DNA from: Bdellovibrionota bacterium FG-1
GTDB taxonomy: Bacteria > Bdellovibrionota > UBA1018
Direction of reading: 5' to 3'
Assembly (NCBI GenBank): GCA_051382295.1
Contig: JBBCAW010000058.1
Span: 1-54,778, forward strand
Length of the DNA: 54,778 bases
The notes under the pieces are model-generated. The model saw nothing but the letters and a program-made list of their open reading frames with translations, had not been told where the DNA came from and did no database searches. A program made the translations under genes and the position numbers. This document shows, piece by piece, positions 2,271 through 25,243 of this stretch. Numbering within the stretch: the first letter of the stretch is position 1; each line of letters begins with the position of its first letter.

Positions 2271-3530
2271 ATGAAAATATACACTGGGGTCTTTTATTTA
2301 AGTGTTTTTTTGTGCTCGTTGAGCAGTTTGGCGGTTCCTGTTGCAGCGCCTATTTCCTTAAATAACGCCTACCGCGCGGCCCTGCAGCTCACCGAAACTA
2401 CGCCTATCGGTCAGTCGCGGATCAATCAAACTGAAGCGCGAGTGAAGCAAGTAAGAGCGAAATTTTTGCCAGTGTTTTCTTTAGGGAGTGGTTATCAGCA
2501 GCTAGATAATAATAATTCAAGTTCGGTGTCGTATACGCGTTTGACTCTTTCTCAATCTATTTACGAGGGCGGAAGAGATCGGTCGTCTTTAGAAAGTGCA
2601 AAAGCCTTGAGACAAAACCAAGAACAAAATTTATGGGTTGCTCAATACGCCGTATTCACCTTGGTCGCTCGCAATTACTACGCCATTTTATCCAGTGAAC
2701 GCGAAACGACCAATATTCGAAAAGCCAGTTTGTTAGCAAATGATCGGGCCACAGAAATATCTAATCGTGTTGATATTGGGAGAGCTAAAAAGGTTGAGCT
2801 TTTGGCTGCGCAAGCTCAGGTTTCCGTTCTTGAGTCACAATTGATGGCCGCTGAAGGCCAGCTTATTACGGTGAAAGAGCAGTTTGGCTTGATTACGGGA
2901 CTTGGAAAGCATATCGATTTGGCTCAACCTTCTGAAACCATCCGAGCACCTGGATCGGTTGATTCCTATCTTTCACTATTGGAAAAAAGGCCAGACATCG
3001 CGGCCATGAAGGCCCAAATTGAGGCGGCACAAAAAAGTATCGGGGTTGTTCAGGCGGGCCATTTGCCGGCTTTGAGCATCACGGGAGATTATTACGTCTT
3101 TCAGGGTGGAACACAAAAATCCAATAATTGGGATGCCGGGCTTTATCTCTCGTTTCCGATTTTTTCAGGCGGCGCAGTTTTAGCCCAGGTGACTGAGTTC
3201 AGTGAGCGTGAAAAAGAGGTTGAGCTGACGCTGAGTCAGACTCGCCGTGAGGCTGAGATCGAGATTCGAAATGCGTATAACAATCTTGTGAGCGCGGTCA
3301 ATCAGATCAGGTCCCTCCGGTCAGCTCTGTCTTCAACTGAGCAAAATTACAAAGAACAGGAAAAAAATTATCGGTTTGGACAGGCGACTAATTTGGACGT
3401 GATCCAGGCGCTTAATGTTGATTTGGATACGAGGCGAACGTTGGATCGGACGCGGTATCAGGCTTTGACTTCTTGGGCTGAACTCAGTTCTGCTACGGCG
3501 CAGGTTCCCATGTTGGAGGGAAATCCATGA
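2271..3530 (+). CDS. TolC-family outer membrane efflux protein
   Basis: Signal peptide, two OEP repeats (LSQSIYEGG; LSFPIFSGG), YRFG..T.LDV. Confidence 0.9.
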   Translation: MKIYTGVFYLSVFLCSLSSLAVPVAAPISLNNAYRAALQLTETTPIGQSRINQTEARVKQVRAKFLPVFSLGSGYQQLDNNNSSSVSYTRLTLSQSIYEGGRDRSSLESAKALRQNQEQNLWVAQYAVFTLVARNYYAILSSERETTNIRKASLLANDRATEISNRVDIGRAKKVELLAAQAQVSVLESQLMAAEGQLITVKEQFGLITGLGKHIDLAQPSETIRAPGSVDSYLSLLEKRPDIAAMKAQIEAAQKSIGVVQAGHLPALSITGDYYVFQGGTQKSNNWDAGLYLSFPIFSGGAVLAQVTEFSEREKEVELTLSQTRREAEIEIRNAYNNLVSAVNQIRSLRSALSSTEQNYKEQEKNYRFGQATNLDVIQALNVDLDTRRTLDRTRYQALTSWAELSSATAQVPMLEGNP

Positions 3531-6500
3531 ATCTTTCCGAAGTATCGATCAAAAATCACGTTTTTGCCTGGATGCTTATGGCCGGGTTGCTTATTTTCGG
3601 AGGCATAGCGTTTGAGCGGATGGGGGTTAGTCAACTTCCCGACGTGGACTTTCCGGTCGTGAGTGTGAATGTCATTCTTGATGGCGCTTCTCCCGAGGTC
3701 ATGGAACTCAACGTTGTCGACGTGATTGAAGGCGGTTTGACCTCTGTTCCGGGCATAAAGACCATGACCTCGTCATCGCGAACAGGGAGCGCCAGTATTT
3801 CGCTTGAGTTTGGCCTTGATAAGGATATCAACGTCGCGGTTCAAGAGGTGCAAAGCGCGCTTGCGCGCGTCCAGCGGAACCTTCCGGCAGATGTCGAACC
3901 CCCAACGGTGAGTAAGTCGAATCCTGACGATCAACCTATTTTACAACTGAGCGTCACCGCCGACGGGATGTCACGAAAAGAACTGATGACGTTAGTTCGT
4001 GACCGGGTTCAAGACCGCTTCACCACTCTCGAAGGGGTGGGGCAGATCACGCTTGGCGGTTACCTTGCCCCCAATTTGAGGGTATGGCTTTCGCAGGGTA
4101 AGCTCGACCATTTTCAACTCACGGCAAATGACGTGATCAAGGCAATTCAGTTGGAGCATTCGGAGAAGCCTGGGGGCCGGATCGAAACGGGTCAGGAAGA
4201 AATGAATATTCGCACTCTGGGCGAAGCACCGACCGTGAAAGACTTTGAGAATATCACGATCACTCGACGTGGCGGCGCTTTGAATTACCGGCCCATTGCG
4301 CTCAAGGAAGTGGCGCAGGTGGAGGACGGGACGGCCGACGTGCGCAGCCTTAGCCGTGCGCAAGGCAAGGTTGCCGTGGGTATTGGTATTACGAAGCAAC
4401 CTGGAACCAATGCCGTGGAGGTCGCTAAAGCCGTTAAGCAAAGGATGAAGGAAGTTGCCACGCAGTTACCCAAGGGAGTTAATATCGGGGTGCGTTTTGA
4501 TACGACCCAGTTCATCGAAGAGGCCGTCAACGAGTTGAACTTCACCCTGATTTTCTCCGCGATTTTGACTGCACTCGTGTGTTGGGTGTTTTTGGGGTCC
4601 TGGTCGGCGACGGTGAATGTGATCTTGGCGATCCCCACCTCGGTGGTCGGCTGCTTTATCGTTCTTCATGCTTTGGGGTTTACGCTCAACACCTTCACTC
4701 TTCTTGGGCTTTCGCTCGCGATTGGAATCGTGGTTGACGACGCTATTATGGTGCTTGAGAACATTGTTCGCCATAAGGAAGAAGGCAAGGACCGAGTCCA
4801 GGCGTCGCTCGATGGTGCGAAGGAAATTACAACCGCTGCTATAGCTGCGACGATCGCTATCATCGCCATTTTTCTTCCCGTAACCTTTATGGAAGGTGTG
4901 ATCGGAAAGTATTTTCTACAGTTTGGAATCACCCTCTCAGTGGCTGTGGCCATTTCGCTTCTTGAAGCGTTGACGCTGACTCCGATGAGGTGTTCTCGTT
5001 TTTTGGTGGTCTCACGGAGGACTTCATGGCTGGGGATTGGAGTTGAAAAGGGGTTTGATGTCGCGGAAAAGGTCTACAAAAAAATGATCCCGATGACACT
5101 GCGACATCCCTGGGCGACGCTCTTAGGGGCGACCTTGTTTTTTATAGCAACCCTGGGAATCGGAAACGTTTTGAAACGCGAATTTGTCCCCCCTCAAGAT
5201 CAGAGTCGGCTGATGGTGCGAGTGCAAACACCTGTAGGTTCTTCGCTGTCGCTGACTGACGAAAAAATGCGGCAAGTGGAAAAATATTTTAGTTCCCGAA
5301 GCGAGGTTTCTGGGCAGTTTACGACCGTTGGGAGTGGAAGTGGGGCTTCGGTCAATACCGGCAATATCTTTTTGACCCTGAGCGCCCCAAAAGAGAGGAA
5401 GTGGAGCGCCCAACAGCTGGCAACTCAATTCAGAAAGGATCTTAAGAAGATCGCCGCCGGCGCGCGTGTGACCATTCAAGATCCCTCTCTTTCAGGATTG
5501 GGAGGTTCCAGAAGTTTTCCCATTCAGTTTACAATCAAGGGGCCGGATTGGGGCCGGTTGGTTGATTTCTCGAAAGGGATCACTGAGGCAATGGAAAAAA
5601 CGGGTCTGATGACCGATGTCGACACCAATTACCAAGACGGGATGCCGGAAATTCAAGTAATTCCCGACCGCATTAAGGCGCGAGAATACGGCGTGGATGT
5701 CTCCGAAATTTCGACGGCCGTGAATGTGATGATGGCCGGAGCGATCGCGGGAAAATACTCCCATGGTGGGCGACGTTACGACGTCAGAGTGGGGCTTCCG
5801 GCGAGTTCTCGTATTTCGACCGATGCGCTTAAAAGACTTTATGTTCGCAACGCTCAGGGCGAGTTAGTCTCTTTGGAGAAGGTTGTCACCCTGGGGCAGC
5901 AGAGTGGTCTGCAAGCGATTTCGAGGGAAGATCGGCAACGGGCAATTACGGTTCGAGCAAACGTCGCACCGGGAAGCTCTCAGTCTGAGGCGATCAATGT
6001 TGTCCAAAAGATCACCCAGGGTATACTAACCGATGGATATTCGGCGGTCGTGAGTGGAAGTGCGAAAACCTTTCAGGAATCTTTCAACGGACTGTTTTTT
6101 GCCCTGTTTTTGGGAATTTTGGTCTCCTACATGGTATTAGCCTCGCAGTTTAATAGTTTTATTCACCCGGTCACGATCCTGATCGCACTTCCCTTTAGCG
6201 TTTCTGGTGCCTTCATTGCGCTCTACGCGGGGGGGCAGACCCTCAATATTTACAGTATGATTGGTCTGATCCTTTTGATGGGGATCGTGAAGAAGAATTC
6301 CATTTTGTTGGTGGAGTTTACTAACCAGATGAGAAAAAAAGGAATGGGGGCCAAGGATGCCCTAATCGAGGCGTGTCCCATCCGTTTGAGGCCTATTCTT
6401 ATGACTTCGATTGCCACGATTGCGGGCGCAATTCCGCCGGCCCTTGCGATTGGGCCAGGGGCAGAGAGTCGAATTCCAATGGCGCTGTCGGTCATCGGCG

Positions 6501-13910: not shown

Positions 13911-14022
13911 AATTTTTTAATTCTGGTCAGTTCCGCAAATTCGACATTGATAAGTGTGTCTTCCCGGGGTATCAGCGCAAGCGCGTTACCTTTTTCCTTA
14001 TTTTAGGGCGGGAGACAAACAG

Positions 14023-14616
14023 ATGCGATTGAGTTTGGGCCTCATCGGGCTTTTAGGGTTCCTCAATGCCAATGCCGTCTTTGCAACGGATGCGATTCCG
14101 GTTTGTCCGGCTTTCAGTTTGCGGAATCAAAACGGGGGAAATCCCGGCGATCTCCCGATCAATAATGCGGATGTTTTGAAGTGGAAGCAGGCCACTCAAA
14201 ACCAGTTCCATGCCCGCGGCCATGTGCAGGGCAATATTGTCAAAGTCTATCCGGATCGGAACGGCCATGATCATTTCGCGATCAAAATTGGCCCGAACGA
14301 TGCTGACACCGTTGAGATCATTTATAATCAGGATTTCGGTACGGCCCCGGATACCCATTCCGGCGTTCCGGTAGAAGCTTGTGGGGATTATATTACCTCC
14401 ACAGCGCCGTCTCCGGGGCCTAATGGTCAAGTCTATCCAGCCTCCCCAGATGGCGCTTTGGTGCACTGGGTACATCTGGCTCCTCCCAGAAGCGGTCATC
14501 ATTCGGGTTTTTTGATGATTGGCGGAATTCTGGTCGGGCAAGGAAAATCTAAGCCCGGTCAGAAACCACGGAAAGATCATGTTAACTTATCCGGATTTAG
14601 TTACTACAGCCGATAA
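14023..14616 (+). CDS. DUF3465-like exported OB-fold protein
   Basis: Signal peptide; G.IVKV.PD..GH.HF, G.Y, VHWVH...SGH.SG pattern; GGAG SD. Confidence 0.75.
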   Translation: MRLSLGLIGLLGFLNANAVFATDAIPVCPAFSLRNQNGGNPGDLPINNADVLKWKQATQNQFHARGHVQGNIVKVYPDRNGHDHFAIKIGPNDADTVEIIYNQDFGTAPDTHSGVPVEACGDYITSTAPSPGPNGQVYPASPDGALVHWVHLAPPRSGHHSGFLMIGGILVGQGKSKPGQKPRKDHVNLSGFSYYSR

Positions 14617-15802
14617 AATTCTCGAAATTGCGGAAAAGCTGAAAACTCGGGATGTGATTGCTTTTGATACGGAGTTTATCCGTGAGAGTACATTTTTTCC
14701 TATTGTTGAAATCATTCAAATCGCCACCGAAGAAGCATCCTGGTTGATCGATGCTCAGGCTTTCAAAAAAGGCTTTCGGCCTGGCCCGCGCGGTGGTTAC
14801 AATCCGGCCATTCAACCGCTCCTCGATGTTTTTATGGACGGATCCATTCTGAAGATTCTCCATGCCGCACAGGGAGACCAAGAGTGCCTATACACCAGTT
14901 TTGGCGTAACGGCGGTGAACTCGTTGGACACCGCGGTGGCGGCATCCTTGTGTGGGATGGGCGATGGAATCGGCCTCGGGAAATTGCTTAAAAACGTTTT
15001 GGACGTTGAAATCAAAAAAGGCCATGCTCGCACCAATTGGTCGGTGAGGCCGCTTCCGGAGCAACTCATTGAGTACGCCCATGCGGATGTGGTGCATCTG
15101 GTTCGCTTGGGGCGCACTTTACTCGAGGAGCTTGAAAAATTGGGTCGAAGGCCCTGGGCGCTGGAACTTTCGTCCAAATGGGAAGACCCAAAATGTTTTG
15201 AGTCCGACATTGAAGCGATGGTGAATAAGCTCGCTCGAGGCGGGCGGCTGGACAAGAAGGGTTATCCGGCTCTTTATGAGTTGATGAAATGGCGGGAAGA
15301 ACGCGTCAAGCAGCTCAATTTGCCCCGGCGCTGGGTAGCCGATGATGCTGTATTAATGGATCTTGCCCATGTGAGACCCAAGGATTTGGCGCATTTAAGT
15401 GCTTTTCGAGGATTGAACAAGGGTGAGCTCAAAAATAGTGGTGAAGCCATCCTCTTGGCGCTCAAGCGGGGGTCTGAAGGCAACGAAGTGGACATACCGA
15501 GGCAGCCGCGGCCGGAGATCCCCTCCTTTGAAGAAGCCCAGGTTTTGGACGTGCTCCGCTGCTATGTCGGAATTTTAGCGGACCAACACAAAATTGCGTC
15601 CAAACATTTGATGACGTCTCCCCAGCTTTTGCCGCTTTTGCGAAATCGTCCACAAAATCGGGAAGATTTAGTAAAAGCCGGAATTTTGGGCGAAGATGCA
15701 AGCGCCTTGATTGGTGATGAAATCGTCGCGATGCTTCAGGGAAAACGTGCCCTCGCGATTCGCGGTGCGCAAATTCGAATTTTGGAGACCTCGAGTGACT
15801 GA
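14579..15802 (+). CDS. rnd: Ribonuclease D
   Basis: AFDTEFIRE ExoI motif, HAA.GD, NWSVRPL..QLIEYA.AD, HRDC region WRE...NLP. Confidence 0.92.
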   Translation: MLTYPDLVTTADKILEIAEKLKTRDVIAFDTEFIRESTFFPIVEIIQIATEEASWLIDAQAFKKGFRPGPRGGYNPAIQPLLDVFMDGSILKILHAAQGDQECLYTSFGVTAVNSLDTAVAASLCGMGDGIGLGKLLKNVLDVEIKKGHARTNWSVRPLPEQLIEYAHADVVHLVRLGRTLLEELEKLGRRPWALELSSKWEDPKCFESDIEAMVNKLARGGRLDKKGYPALYELMKWREERVKQLNLPRRWVADDAVLMDLAHVRPKDLAHLSAFRGLNKGELKNSGEAILLALKRGSEGNEVDIPRQPRPEIPSFEEAQVLDVLRCYVGILADQHKIASKHLMTSPQLLPLLRNRPQNREDLVKAGILGEDASALIGDEIVAMLQGKRALAIRGAQIRILETSSD

Positions 15803-17108
15803 AAACAGTGGAACCGCTGTGCGTCCCCTTTATTCTCGTGAATTCAAACGTCGGCGTGCGATGAATTGGCTGACGCTGGGTTTCACTTATTCGGCCATGT
15901 ATATGGGCCGCTATAATCTGTCATTTGCCAATAAGTCCCTTTCTGAAAAGTATCATTGGGATAAAACCCAAATCGGCACCATTATTAGCTCTGGGCTTTT
16001 AATCTACGGCCTTTCGGCCATGTTCAACGGGCCGATTGCCGATCGGATCGGTGGTCGGCGCTCCATGTTGGTGGGGGCGGCTGGGGCTGTGGTTTTTAAT
16101 CTTCTTTTTGGCTTGGGTGCCTATTTTGGTTTTCTCGGAACGGGTGCTTTGCTCTTGAGTTATTTTTCGTCCATCTGGGCGATGAACTCCTTTTTTCAAT
16201 CTTACAGCGCGCTTTCCCTGATTAAGGTGAATGCAGGTTGGTTTCACATCTCCGAACGCGGGGTGTTTTCAGCAATTTTCGGCTCGATGATTCAACTGGG
16301 TCGAACGCTGATTTTTGTGATTTGTCCGATCATTCTCGCCTTCGGGCCTTGGCAGTGGGTATTCTTTGTTCCAGCAGCGGTGATCGCCTTGATGGCGATC
16401 CTGACCTATCGAAACGTTCGCAATGGTCCAGAGGAATGTGGATTGCCGTCCTTGGACGTTCAGGATGCTTCGAGTGGCGATACCGAGACGGTCAATCTCA
16501 AGTATGTTCTCAAAAAAGTGCTGACCAATCCCATTACGCTCACTATTGCGGTCGCTGAATTTTGTACCGGTTTTGTGCGACACGGGTTTGAACAGTGGTT
16601 TCCTCGCTACATGATTGAGGCGCAAAAGCTCCCGCTCGATTCTATTATATTCCAAAGGGGAGCTTTTGCCGTCGTATTGGCGGGAATTGCGGGGGCTTTT
16701 GCCGCCGGCACGCTTTCAGATTGGGTCTTCAAAGGGCGTCGCACTCCCGTCGCCTTTTTGGGTTATTTTGGGCAAATCATTTGTCTAGCCATTATTTGGA
16801 AAGCCCCCGGGCTGAATTGGATCATCGGCGCCTTTGTGGTGAATTCATTTTCGATCAGTATTGTCCATTCTATGTTGTCTGGGACGGCGTCGATGGATTT
16901 TGGTGGTAAAAAGGCGGCAGCTACCGCTGCGGGCCTGTTCGACGGGATGCAATACGTGGGTGGGTCCTTTGTGGGCATCGGAGTGGGCTGGTTGCTCGAT
17001 CGTTTTGGTTGGGGTGCTTGGGGACCCAGTATGATCGGCTTTTCATTCATAGGCGCGATTTTGATGTTAACCTTGTGGAATGCTCGTCCAAAAACCCAAG
17101 CGCACTGA
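15795..17108 (+). CDS. MFS transporter, GlpT/UhpC (organophosphate:Pi antiporter) family-like
   Basis: Y.GRYN.S, G..ADRIGGR, WF..SERG, G.LSDW.F.GRR.P; about 12 TM; GTG start inferred. Confidence 0.85.
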   Translation: MTENSGTAVRPLYSREFKRRRAMNWLTLGFTYSAMYMGRYNLSFANKSLSEKYHWDKTQIGTIISSGLLIYGLSAMFNGPIADRIGGRRSMLVGAAGAVVFNLLFGLGAYFGFLGTGALLLSYFSSIWAMNSFFQSYSALSLIKVNAGWFHISERGVFSAIFGSMIQLGRTLIFVICPIILAFGPWQWVFFVPAAVIALMAILTYRNVRNGPEECGLPSLDVQDASSGDTETVNLKYVLKKVLTNPITLTIAVAEFCTGFVRHGFEQWFPRYMIEAQKLPLDSIIFQRGAFAVVLAGIAGAFAAGTLSDWVFKGRRTPVAFLGYFGQIICLAIIWKAPGLNWIIGAFVVNSFSISIVHSMLSGTASMDFGGKKAAATAAGLFDGMQYVGGSFVGIGVGWLLDRFGWGAWGPSMIGFSFIGAILMLTLWNARPKTQAH

Positions 17109-17148
17109 TATTTTAGGATCAACTGCCGGCCTGTGGCAGTGGGCACGT

Positions 17149-18039
17149 TTACCTTAGCCACGTCGGCGGAAATTGATCTTCGGGGAAGATTCCGTAAAGC
17201 TCGCTCCTCGGGGGAGGCAGCGGGCTTTTGATCCCATCGTCGAGCGTATTCAGGTATTGAATGATCGCTAAGTCGTATTTTTTCAAACGGCCCAGATACT
17301 CCGGGGTGGGCTTTGTCGCAGGTTTATATACCCGGTCATGATTCCAGTAAGCCCAGAAGGCGGTCCTTCTCGACATGACCTGAACTTCGACCACATTCCC
17401 CTTTGGGGTCCGGAGGGCGAGGTGGCGCGCCCGGTAGCCTCGGTCGTAATTCTTGGTCTCGTCGAGCAGGACGGTGACACCGTCCATTTTTTTGACCGCC
17501 TCCGCCACTCTGGCGATCTGGGCTTTGTCCGAAGTAGTAAAGCGGGCTCCTGCTGCGTCATCCAGGTCCGAGAGTCGAAAGCCGAATCCCTTCTCCCGAA
17601 CTCGCTCGAAGATCTTGGTTTTGAGGCTGTCCACGGTCTTGAGTCGAGCAGCGAATTCGGTGGAAGGTTCCGTGGCTTTTACCTGTCTGAATCCTTCTGC
17701 AAGTTCATCAAAGGCATTTCGTCCCTGCAGGATCAACGCATCGAGATTGATCGGCTTTTGAATTTTGGCTGCCAGGAGCTGTGCCTCTGGCAGCTTTGCG
17801 GTTTTCTGAATCATAAAAGTACCATCGGATTGGGGTAGTAGAACTTCAAACCCGCCCTCCGGGGCTTCCCGGACGTGCTGATTGCCGACTTTGTCGAGTC
17901 GGGAAGCGATCGATGGGGGCTCAGAATTCCGTAGTTTTTCGAGGATTGAAAGGACACAGCCTTCGCCCGAAAAGGCCAGGGAAGGGGAGGTCATCCCGAG
18001 GAGGAAGAAAGCTGTGACTACACCCAGGTTAACTTTCAC
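17149..18039 (-). CDS. Signal-peptide-bearing RelA/SpoT synthetase-domain protein (small alarmone synthetase-like)
   Basis: ARLKT.DSL..K, D..G.R, GYRARH, VEVQV, WA.W.HD..YK synthetase motifs; N-terminal MK + hydrophobic stretch + SLA. Confidence 0.8.
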   Translation of the reverse strand: MKVNLGVVTAFFLLGMTSPSLAFSGEGCVLSILEKLRNSEPPSIASRLDKVGNQHVREAPEGGFEVLLPQSDGTFMIQKTAKLPEAQLLAAKIQKPINLDALILQGRNAFDELAEGFRQVKATEPSTEFAARLKTVDSLKTKIFERVREKGFGFRLSDLDDAAGARFTTSDKAQIARVAEAVKKMDGVTVLLDETKNYDRGYRARHLALRTPKGNVVEVQVMSRRTAFWAYWNHDRVYKPATKPTPEYLGRLKKYDLAIIQYLNTLDDGIKSPLPPPRSELYGIFPEDQFPPTWLR

Positions 18040-18139: not shown

Positions 18140-19048
18140 ATGAACTTTTTTGCGCACTTCTGCCGATGGATCATAATTTTGCCTTGTGTGGCCCTGCTCA
18201 ACGGCTGCGCTTCTGTGCCGCGTTCCCAGGGCACTCAGCCCTCAGCTGCGAATTCCGGTACGGGCGAGGTGTTGCCGATTATCGACGCTCATACCCACAC
18301 CGATTTTACGGGTAAACCCGAGCGCAGCAGTGGAATCATCATTACAGAGGAACAGTACTTCAAGGAGTGGAAAGAGGCGGGAGTGGTGGGGGCCATCGCT
18401 CATACGCATGAGGATGGTGGAGGTTACGCCGACCTTCGCTCTCACAATGTGATCAGTTGTGCGGGCACGGGGCCTAAGGTCGATGTCAAACGGATCGAAA
18501 ATGGCCTAAAATCCGGCAAATATGGTTGTATCAAGGTGTATTTGGGATATGTCCATCAGTGGGCTTATGACAAAAATTATGAGCCCGCTTATCGCTTAGC
18601 CGAAAAGTACCATGTGCCGGTGGTTTTTCATACCGGCGACACTTACTCGATCAAGGGTAAGCTCAAGTACTCAGATCCACTGACGATTGACGAGGTAGCG
18701 GTCGATCACCCCAAAGTCACCTTTGTGATCGCCCATTGCGGCAATCCGTGGATCGAGTCAGCGGCCGAAGTCGCCTATAAGAATCCCAATGTCTATTTGG
18801 ACGGCTCGGCGTTTTTGATCGGAGATTTGAATAAAGCGCCTAAAGAAAAAATCGATCAGTATGTCGTGAAGCCGATTTCATGGATCTTTGGTTACCTCGA
18901 AGATCCCACAAAGCTGATGTTTGGCACGGATTGGCCGCTGACGAATATTAAATCGTATGTGGATGCTTTCAAACGAGCGATTCCGCCAGAGCACTGGAAG
19001 GCGGTCTTTCACGACAATGCCGTCCGGGTGTTTAAGCTTCATCCCTAA
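18140..19048 (+). CDS. Amidohydrolase-family (Amidohydro_2) putative lipoprotein
   Basis: Lipobox LNGC; IIDAHTH, FHTG, AHCG.P, MFGTDWP. Confidence 0.88.
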   Translation: MNFFAHFCRWIIILPCVALLNGCASVPRSQGTQPSAANSGTGEVLPIIDAHTHTDFTGKPERSSGIIITEEQYFKEWKEAGVVGAIAHTHEDGGGYADLRSHNVISCAGTGPKVDVKRIENGLKSGKYGCIKVYLGYVHQWAYDKNYEPAYRLAEKYHVPVVFHTGDTYSIKGKLKYSDPLTIDEVAVDHPKVTFVIAHCGNPWIESAAEVAYKNPNVYLDGSAFLIGDLNKAPKEKIDQYVVKPISWIFGYLEDPTKLMFGTDWPLTNIKSYVDAFKRAIPPEHWKAVFHDNAVRVFKLHP

Positions 19049-24616: not shown

Positions 24617-25243
24617 CTAATTGTTTGCGTTGGTGGATAGTTCGATCATGATATTCCCCACGGCATAAGGCACTGAGTAGGGACGCTGAGCCGTGCGGTT
24701 GAAGTCATGGTCAAAGCCTAGCTTATGCATCCACTCATGTGCAATGTTTCCCGCCACCTCTTGCACCGTGAAGCGCTGGAACCAATAATGGTTCATATAG
24801 ATCTCAGGATGGCCGGCATAACCATAGCCGATGACGCTTTTCTTCTTGTACCAAGGCGGATTGTAAAGGTTGAGATCCAATTGGGCGACGTGGTCATCCG
24901 CCGCCGAATAGGTCTCGTGTCCCTTCATGATTTGTTCGTAGACCTGTTCATTCGTTAGGTTGTTGTTGTTAGCAAACTGGGGCTTTCCGTTAAAAGTAAA
25001 GTCCAGAACCTTTTGATGAAACTCTTGACTGTTGAAGACTTGATCGATGAGTTCGATAGATTGTTTCAGTTTTGCATTCTCCACTGTGGAAAAGCCGCTG
25101 AGGTGTGCGAGATCGATCTTGAGGCCGTCCTGCCCGTCAATCGGGGTGAGGGGGGCCGCTCTGGCGTTTCCGGCAAATCCGATGCTTAAAAAAAACACTA
25201 CGAGGGCACTCCTGACTGCAGTGAGGTGTCGCTTGTTTTTCAT
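24617..25243 (-). CDS. Putative secreted zinc metalloprotease
   Basis: Signal peptide (..ARA); HEWMHKLGFDH metzincin-type motif; SVPY.VG. Confidence 0.8.
   Translation of the reverse strand: MKNKRHLTAVRSALVVFFLSIGFAGNARAAPLTPIDGQDGLKIDLAHLSGFSTVENAKLKQSIELIDQVFNSQEFHQKVLDFTFNGKPQFANNNNLTNEQVYEQIMKGHETYSAADDHVAQLDLNLYNPPWYKKKSVIGYGYAGHPEIYMNHYWFQRFTVQEVAGNIAHEWMHKLGFDHDFNRTAQRPYSVPYAVGNIMIELSTNANN

Follow-up and report, generated by a model that had tools for sequence, protein, structure and literature searches.

A candidate exported small alarmone synthetase of Bdellovibrionota bacterium FG-1 and its apparent clade of relatives with a lone-cysteine leader

Exported alarmone synthetases (EAS) were defined in 2025 as proteins with a Sec signal that are encoded by solitary genes without immunity genes and that are toxic only in the cytoplasm (PMC12691689). 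The published set contains 252 Sec-type proteins among 1,369 sequences, with the Sec clusters found in Streptomyces and in Vibrio/Shewanella, and all three EAS that were assayed act on nucleotides (PMC12691689). Signal-less SaEAS and VpEAS kill E. coli, and full-length VpEAS does not; uptake of EAS by other cells was not found, co-culture was without effect, and the role of the enzymes is left open, although an extracellular role is favored for SaEAS from its low Km values (PMC12691689). Where Sec-exported synthetases meet ATP and GTP is left open in PMC12691689, which found no internalizing cell, and an EAS lineage in a phylum that opens and eats bacteria would be a natural setting for this question of substrate access. 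In Bdellovibrionota the Tad/Kil systems have been tied to predation (PMC13200544, PMC12428579), and the effectors of these systems are mostly unexplored (PMC12428579).

The window analyzed here is the whole 54,778-nucleotide stretch of contig JBBCAW010000058.1 (assembly GCA_051382295.1) from Bdellovibrionota bacterium FG-1, an uncultured organism that we infer to be predatory from its phylum only. A candidate exported small alarmone synthetase (SAS) gene lies at 17149..18039 on the minus strand and was recognized from the ORF list, PF04607, and its reading frame. The intact frame opens with GTG and encodes 296 amino acids, and a longer start is impossible because an in-frame TAG sits directly 5′ of the GTG. 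The database gene caller placed the start at Met16 (P0002, 281 aa), and the signal peptide is therefore hidden in the database copy. The GC content of the gene is 0.544 versus 0.513 for the genome, and the only other PF04607 match in the FG-1 genome is a long Rel in a 761-aa frame.

The protein starts with a Sec-like signal peptide (residues 1–22; 17974..18039, minus strand), which the first-pass annotation had also noticed, and which contains K2, a hydrophobic stretch at residues 5–16, and SPSLA. As with all signal peptides in this work it was called by a hydropathy heuristic, with the Kyte-Doolittle 11-mer peak of 2.3 at residues 5–15 being followed by SPSLA as a heuristically assigned type I cleavage-like site. 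The predicted leader helix that follows (17929..17973, minus strand) contains Cys28 and is flexible in the AF2 model (pLDDT 56–66 over residues 21–40), and the helix itself, modeled at residues 28–37, agrees with the Cys-helix of the first reading. The Cys28 codon is at 17958–17956, and the protein has no other cysteine. Beyond the leader is a clade-specific N-domain at residues 44–91 (17767..17910, minus strand), consisting in the model and alignments of a helix, three strands, and a helix, so that the folded part is about 50 residues long and not the roughly 100 first proposed. This domain is missing from some members (P0019, P0023, P0024), had no match in the Atlas and has no second copy in the FG-1 genome, and the best hit of its fold search, at Z 4.2 on a single-sequence model of pLDDT 66, shows neither novelty nor difference. 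At the other end of the protein is a clade-specific C-terminal tail (residues 268–296; 17152..17238, minus strand) seen in alignments, which is Pro-rich and then reads GI.PED.FP.

The SYNTH domain spans residues 99–267 (17239..17745, minus strand) as judged from PF04607 at 17320–17646, the fold match, and conservation. PF04607 matches residues 132–240 with 40.4 bits against a cut-off of 27, and no other family, including any hydrolase, was matched at E ≤ 0.1; every motif quoted in the first-pass annotation for a RelA/SpoT synthetase without a hydrolase domain was found. The motif residues are R132, K134, S138, K142, D161, G164, R166, Y202, H206, E218, and Q220, followed by W229, W232, H234, Y238, and K239, and in the 50 clade rows K134, K142, D161, R166, Y202, E218, and Q220 are invariant, with R132 retained in 49. 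The spacing of these ATP- and Mg-binding residues in the clade is that of FaRel2 R64/K66/S70/K74, D90/G93/R95, Y128, and E145/Q147, mapped by spacing from PMC11782079. In the AF2 model, built from 27 sequences (pLDDT 90, pTM 0.80), the flexible leader, helix 28–37, N-domain, SYNTH domain, and tail are distinct, and the closest structural matches are RelP (Z 14.8, rmsd 3.2, 174 aligned), B. subtilis SAS2 (14.3), CapRel (13.0 over 210 residues), SaEAS (12.7, rmsd 3.4, 182 residues, PDB 8vx3), RelQ (12.6), and Tas1 (10.9). The predicted fold is thus that of an SAS with conserved donor-site residues and a SYNTH-only architecture.

Among the motifs the first-pass annotation had singled out GYRARH as a departure from GY.S.H, a view that the alignments do not bear out: the column of Ala204 is Ala in 49 of 50 clade rows and in 54 of 108 outside rows, and Ala was rejected as a specificity change since it is common outside the clade too. 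The true deviation lies just before it, in a remodeled acceptor (G) loop at residues 190–206 (17422..17472, minus strand) that, by alignments and motif counts, is without the DY..PK motif. Tyr198 occupies the column of RelP's Lys, and the loop motif D[YF]..P is found in 3 of 50 clade rows versus 56 of 103 outside rows. Because of this remodeling the product cannot be read from the sequence, and the product need not be a nucleotide.

A full HMMER scan gave 254 matches at E ≤ 0.001, the best 150 of which were used; a word-indexed homologue search returned the protein itself only, and three matches with alignment A1. The closest relative among the best 150 of 254 is P0003, at 44% identity, which is encoded in L041 and in a genome (G007) of the same family as FG-1; L042 encodes a more distant one. 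A quick tree was built from 158 SYNTH domains after 12 duplicate or fragment rows had been removed and 16 rows derived from loci had been included, all of them other than characterized SAS; its weakly supported root branch separates 53 rows from the remaining 105. A more careful tree of 84 rows took 43 of the 53, with long branches, near-duplicates, and fragments removed, and 41 of the 105; in it the 43 rows share a branch with one long-branch outsider at support 82/97, and exactly those 43 rows are together in only 4% of 200 bootstrap trees, the bootstrap being unsettled. Some 50 divergent relatives are set apart, with moderate support, from phage and cytoplasmic SAS on a branch of their own, which may have a single origin, and this clade appears to be new. 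Its genome-linked members are all in Bdellovibrionota, most rows being metagenome proteins without taxonomic placement; the placeable members are those in G000 (FG-1), G007, G031, G280, G298, G350, and G406 and in two titled records (L041, L042). Distribution is sporadic, with five full-length matches and one divergent match in 401 phylum genomes, where the other matches are long Rel or unrelated SAS. As 395 of these 401 genomes have no clade match, the gene is not core predation machinery, and its patchiness is what would be expected of an accessory effector. Viral contigs had no match to the clade pattern, annotated phages gave 14 weak partial matches with none covering 80%, PHROGs had no match for the FG-1 protein, PADLOC gave only a partial SYNTH match to PDC-S33, and a sequencing-run look-up returned none.

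A signal peptide is called heuristically in 45 of the 53 tree-group rows versus 10 of 105 outside rows (two of the 10 being doubtful), which answers in favor of export the question whether homologues keep it; among the eight uncalled group rows are six that are fragments or look cut short, one whose n-region is long, and a leaderless long-branch row. A Cys occurs at positions 15–60 in every one of the 45 signal-bearing group rows, and in 35 it is the sole Cys, although these rows are related and the counts are not independent. Past residue 60 the group rows contain 12 Cys in 14,720 residues. In proteins where the synthetase is fused to other domains the Cys travels with the signal peptide and not with the N-domain, as in P0012, which joins a XopAC-like Fic domain to the SAS, and in P0016 (CHAD by Pfam) and its relatives P0017 and P0020, which are CHAD-like plus SAS. 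A 2,748-aa protein, P0091, has cytidylyltransferase-like and SAS domains behind the same leader.

The FG-1 protein shows two features of the Sec-type EAS, namely a heuristically predicted N-terminal Sec signal and an isolated gene without adjacent immunity. The first-pass annotation had taken it for the best candidate for an undescribed system, which no longer holds: the kind was described in 2025, and the final set of PMC12691689 includes a signal-bearing, Apk1-like SAS from Bdellovibrionaceae. What appears to be new is the lone-Cys-leader clade in Bdellovibrionota. Searched by organism name, the available supplements of PMC12691689 have four Bdellovibrionota rows, three signal-less and one the signal-bearing Apk1-like protein, none of them of the clade, and six hexapeptides of the clade, which occur in 22 of 53 group rows, match only two signal-less proteins in File S5; members could be in that set under other organism names. 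In the literature, including that on Bdellovibrio alarmone synthetase and on Bdellovibrionota effectors and cysteine, and with few subscription papers covered, no description of the clade or its leader was found. SaEAS (8vx3) and VpEAS/RelV likewise combine a Sec-type leader with a stand-alone SYNTH domain and an isolated gene without an immunity neighbor (PMC12691689). The FG-1 protein probably does not belong to the published Sec EAS clusters, and it is apparently separate from SaEAS in lineage and origin, the clade profile scoring SaEAS at just 29.7 bits. It has D..G.R where SaEAS has D121..R124, and its lone-Cys leader, N-domain, and C-tail are not mentioned for EAS in the available part of PMC12691689; of the two enzymes, the sequence comparison covers SaEAS.

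The best sequence and fold match is to RelP/YwaC and RelQ/YjbM (6ewz, 6fgk, 5dec), which share the donor-site motifs and the W..(.)H..YK helix; the clade profile scores RelP/RelQ at 78.6–57.9 bits, above FaRel2 (48), CapRel (40), and SaEAS. RelP and RelQ are, however, cytoplasmic stress enzymes with a DY..(P/H)K loop, whereas the FG-1 protein has a leader, an N-domain, and a remodeled loop. A housekeeping SAS of the RelP/RelQ type was rejected on the missing canonical loop motif and on the weak match to the named SAS family NF053588 (28.4 bits against a cut-off of 320). Tas1/Apk1 (6ox6), Apk2, FaRel2 (8pu1-4), and CapRel (7ztb) have the fold in common and presumably a toxic output, but in toxSAS and Tas1 immunity is either linked or fused and the context is T6SS, MuF, or toxin-antitoxin (PMC12691689), of which none was seen for the FG-1 gene. 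A toxSAS toxin-antitoxin module or T6SS effector was likewise rejected, there being no conserved partner in 10 neighborhoods, no delivery domain in Pfam, and no VipB found. Nearest outside the clade are the phage-type or polyvalent SAS (portal/MuF, SAM-lyase, and NUDIX fusions), which share with it the W..W.HD..YK helix and GYRA.H but which are mostly signal-less, have no N-domain, and often keep the DY..P loop.

Several other SAS with leaders were seen. A second signal-peptide type, in a genome (G017) of the same family as FG-1 (L039:6033–6860, minus strand; 275 aa; PF04607 28 bits), also has a leader Cys, is Apk1-like by eye in its D.LRG and EIQ.H motifs, and resembles the Bdellovibrionaceae protein of the PMC12691689 set; it suggests that exported SAS arose at least twice within Bdellovibrionota. 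Signal- or lipoprotein-leader SAS also occur outside the clade (P0029, P0132, P0041, P0127, P0049, P0101, P0137, and P0145, with P0029 and P0132 being tandem two-domain proteins), from which it seems that SAS export evolved on several further occasions. A separate family of signal-less SAS, about 333 aa long with a C-terminal extension and CapRel-like by eye (L009–L012, L016, L026, and L030), occurs in several genomes from other families of the phylum.

The gene is solitary, as first described, with both neighbors on the opposite strand and no adjacent antitoxin or SAH gene. A convergent MFS transporter (15711..17108, plus strand; PF07690) lies across a 40-bp gap and a divergent amidohydrolase with a lipoprotein-like leader (18140..19048, plus strand; PF04909) across a 100-bp gap; both are placed outside the system, and neither was recognized by eye in the homologue loci. 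No small partner is shared among 10 independent neighborhoods (the window, L033, L034, L035/36, L037, L038, L067, L068/69, L070, which is partial, and L042/71), and no immunity gene is linked in any locus examined. The lone co-directional small ORF, in L035/36, is FlaG-like and is found in 28 of 31 genomes of that family. A 132-aa same-strand ORF at 16763–17161 was set aside as a presumed shadow frame, being antisense to the MFS gene and without a PADLOC match. Elsewhere the FG-1 genome encodes an unlinked cytoplasmic HD_4/SAH-like protein of 202 aa (C5:30033–30641, plus strand), for which a role as dedicated immunity is not supported: 5 of 41 genomes have homologues, and among five other carriers a standalone HD_4 protein was found in one and not in the other four, one of which is only 79% complete. 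A 126-aa HD fragment adjoins an integrase-like gene in the same genome (C21:119619–119780, minus strand). The window also has two small exported proteins, one DUF3465-like (13954–14616, plus strand; E 0.002) and one zincin-like with HEXXH (24617–25243, minus strand; astacin, E 0.025), and the clade member in L068 sits between a signal-bearing NadD-like nucleotidyltransferase (PF01467, E 3e-12) and a signal-plus-Cys orphan (2299–3084, minus strand, and 4395–5420, plus strand).

We consider it very probable that the FG-1 protein is exported and active, and we are evenly divided on whether it is a stand-alone exported alarmone synthetase that acts on prey as a nucleotide-draining effector. In such a role the protein would be threaded unfolded through Sec and would not fold in the producer cytoplasm, so that an antitoxin would be unneeded; that export replaces immunity, as the first-pass annotation proposed, has been shown experimentally for SaEAS and VpEAS/RelV (PMC12691689), and would apply to the FG-1 protein by analogy. 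Cleavage near Ala22 would leave a flexible leader with one cysteine, and Cys28 is probably a point of attachment for further export or for tethering. On meeting the contents of the prey cytoplasm in the course of attack, the SYNTH domain, unregulated and with an active site that is intact in sequence, could move pyrophosphate from ATP to the 3′-OH of a purine nucleotide, a reaction that would make (p)ppGpp and/or (p)ppApp, drain GTP and ATP, and arrest the prey. An anti-prey effector is consistent with the Fic-SAS fusion, the solitary loci, the patchy distribution, and the Tad genes; in the FG-1 genome a Tad RcpC gene adjoins a secretin, one of four in total. Counted against delivery into prey, T6SS VipB was not found in this genome, which is 97.7% complete, and neither uptake of an EAS nor an effect in co-culture was seen in PMC12691689. 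Delivery into prey could be reported sensitively by an enzyme whose product is easy to measure.

It is possible, though doubtful, that the protein is instead exported and active outside any cytoplasm, where, in the predator's periplasm or at the interface with prey, it would convert nucleotides leaked from damaged prey to alarmones that signal feeding or lysis, along the lines put forward for SaEAS. The extracellular role favored for SaEAS and the lack of observed uptake by other cells speak for this, as does the fact that Sec alone reaches only the periplasm and that the VipB search identified no injection system. However, none of the loci examined has a linked receptor, transporter, or hydrolase, and fusion to a XopAC-like Fic domain, which depends on protein targets and NTP, is better matched by delivery. 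The composition of the mature domain is also unfavorable: in contrast to disulfide-stabilized periplasmic enzymes, the SYNTH domain of the clade is Cys-depleted (0.06% in the group versus 0.40% in outside rows).

Distinctly unlikely is that the exported toxin has a non-nucleotide acceptor, either tRNA 3′-CCA, which it would pyrophosphorylate in the manner of FaRel2 and CapRel, or another RNA end, with the N-domain aiding RNA binding. This would account for the absence of the loop motif and its Lys from the FG-1 protein, and in toxSAS that target tRNA the positive acceptor patch is described as smaller, with the N-terminus extended close to the G-loop (PMC11782079); the CapRel match of the whole model is compatible with it as well. 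Yet the profile ranks RelP and RelQ over FaRel2 and CapRel, Lys is present at the Tyr198 column in 23 of 50 clade rows, and the three assayed EAS use nucleotides. If the remodeled loop did alter the acceptor, RSH chemistry would be extended.

That the product is not a free exported protein is very improbable, whether as an ordinary cytoplasmic SAS that starts at Met16 or as a membrane-anchored lipoprotein formed by non-canonical lipidation of Cys28. The Met16 start has in its favor the database gene call and the absence, by eye, of a Shine-Dalgarno motif before the GTG, but the hydrophobic leader is retained in homologues at 25–45% identity. For lipidation, EG precedes Cys28, as in some lipoprotein-type leaders of the FG-1 genome; against it, the Cys lies several residues past the hydrophobic core, unlike a lipobox, in unconserved surroundings, and the preceding residue varies and is often charged (S 8, A 6, R 5, G 4, F 3, and P 3 of 46 rows), on which grounds an SPase II lipoprotein was rejected. 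A catalytically dead or decaying relic would fit the high divergence and the weak NF053588 match but is hardly credible, with an intact frame and catalytic residues that stay invariant in some 50 sequences with a mean column identity of 26% in the core alignment.

Returning to the effector proposal, the signal peptide plus lone-Cys leader might be a general Bdellovibrionota address tag for enzymes that work in prey cytoplasm, with the Cys linking cargo through a disulfide or thioester bond to a delivery device, for example the Tad/Kil pilus, until its release in the reducing prey cytosol; we regard this combined reading as rather unlikely. Were it true, the missing effectors of these predators would be the synthetase, the proteins that fuse it to Fic or CHAD domains, and the orphans with the same leader that resemble ATPases, methyltransferases, and kinases, and the tag would provide the first natural route of a Sec-exported alarmone synthetase into a cytoplasm. 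The invariant lone Cys offers a one-residue test of such a tag. By a position-specific score, Cys leaders in the FG-1 genome number 11 of 360 versus 67 of 3084 control cysteines, and by count 28 of 126 versus 12.4 expected, about a third of the 28 looking like lipoproteins missed by the pattern. Of 20 hand-picked leader-bearing ORFs, seven have a Pfam match at E ≤ 0.01, and five of these are ordinary (a deacetylase, a solute-binding protein, a beta-lactamase-like protein, a hydrolase, and a squalene cyclase). If none of these readings holds, the clade would be one more branch of the family described in 2025.

Among the leader-bearing orphans, four with a signal and Cys-helix leader have a C-terminal half that is kinase-like by eye (C4:1878–3077, L046; C30:30744–32210, L055; C8:68528–69280, L051; and C2:414–1421, L043), a fold for which Pfam, PDB, and database homologues gave no support, and L046 and L055 are paralogous (E 4e-16). 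An AAA-like protein with HEXXH (C3:92285–94399, L044) and a methyltransferase-like one (C28:38352–39287, L054) have weak Pfam matches below the cut-off, and another ORF is methyltransferase-like by eye (C4:74682–75467, L047). Four more leader-bearing ORFs (C7:56604–57650, L048; C8:175707–176693, L050; C137:40351–41457, L057; and C147:28052–30838, L059) look by eye like one ADP-ribosyltransferase-like protein, a reading that like the kinase-like ones was not confirmed, two papain/transglutaminase-like proteins, and one HEXXH protein.
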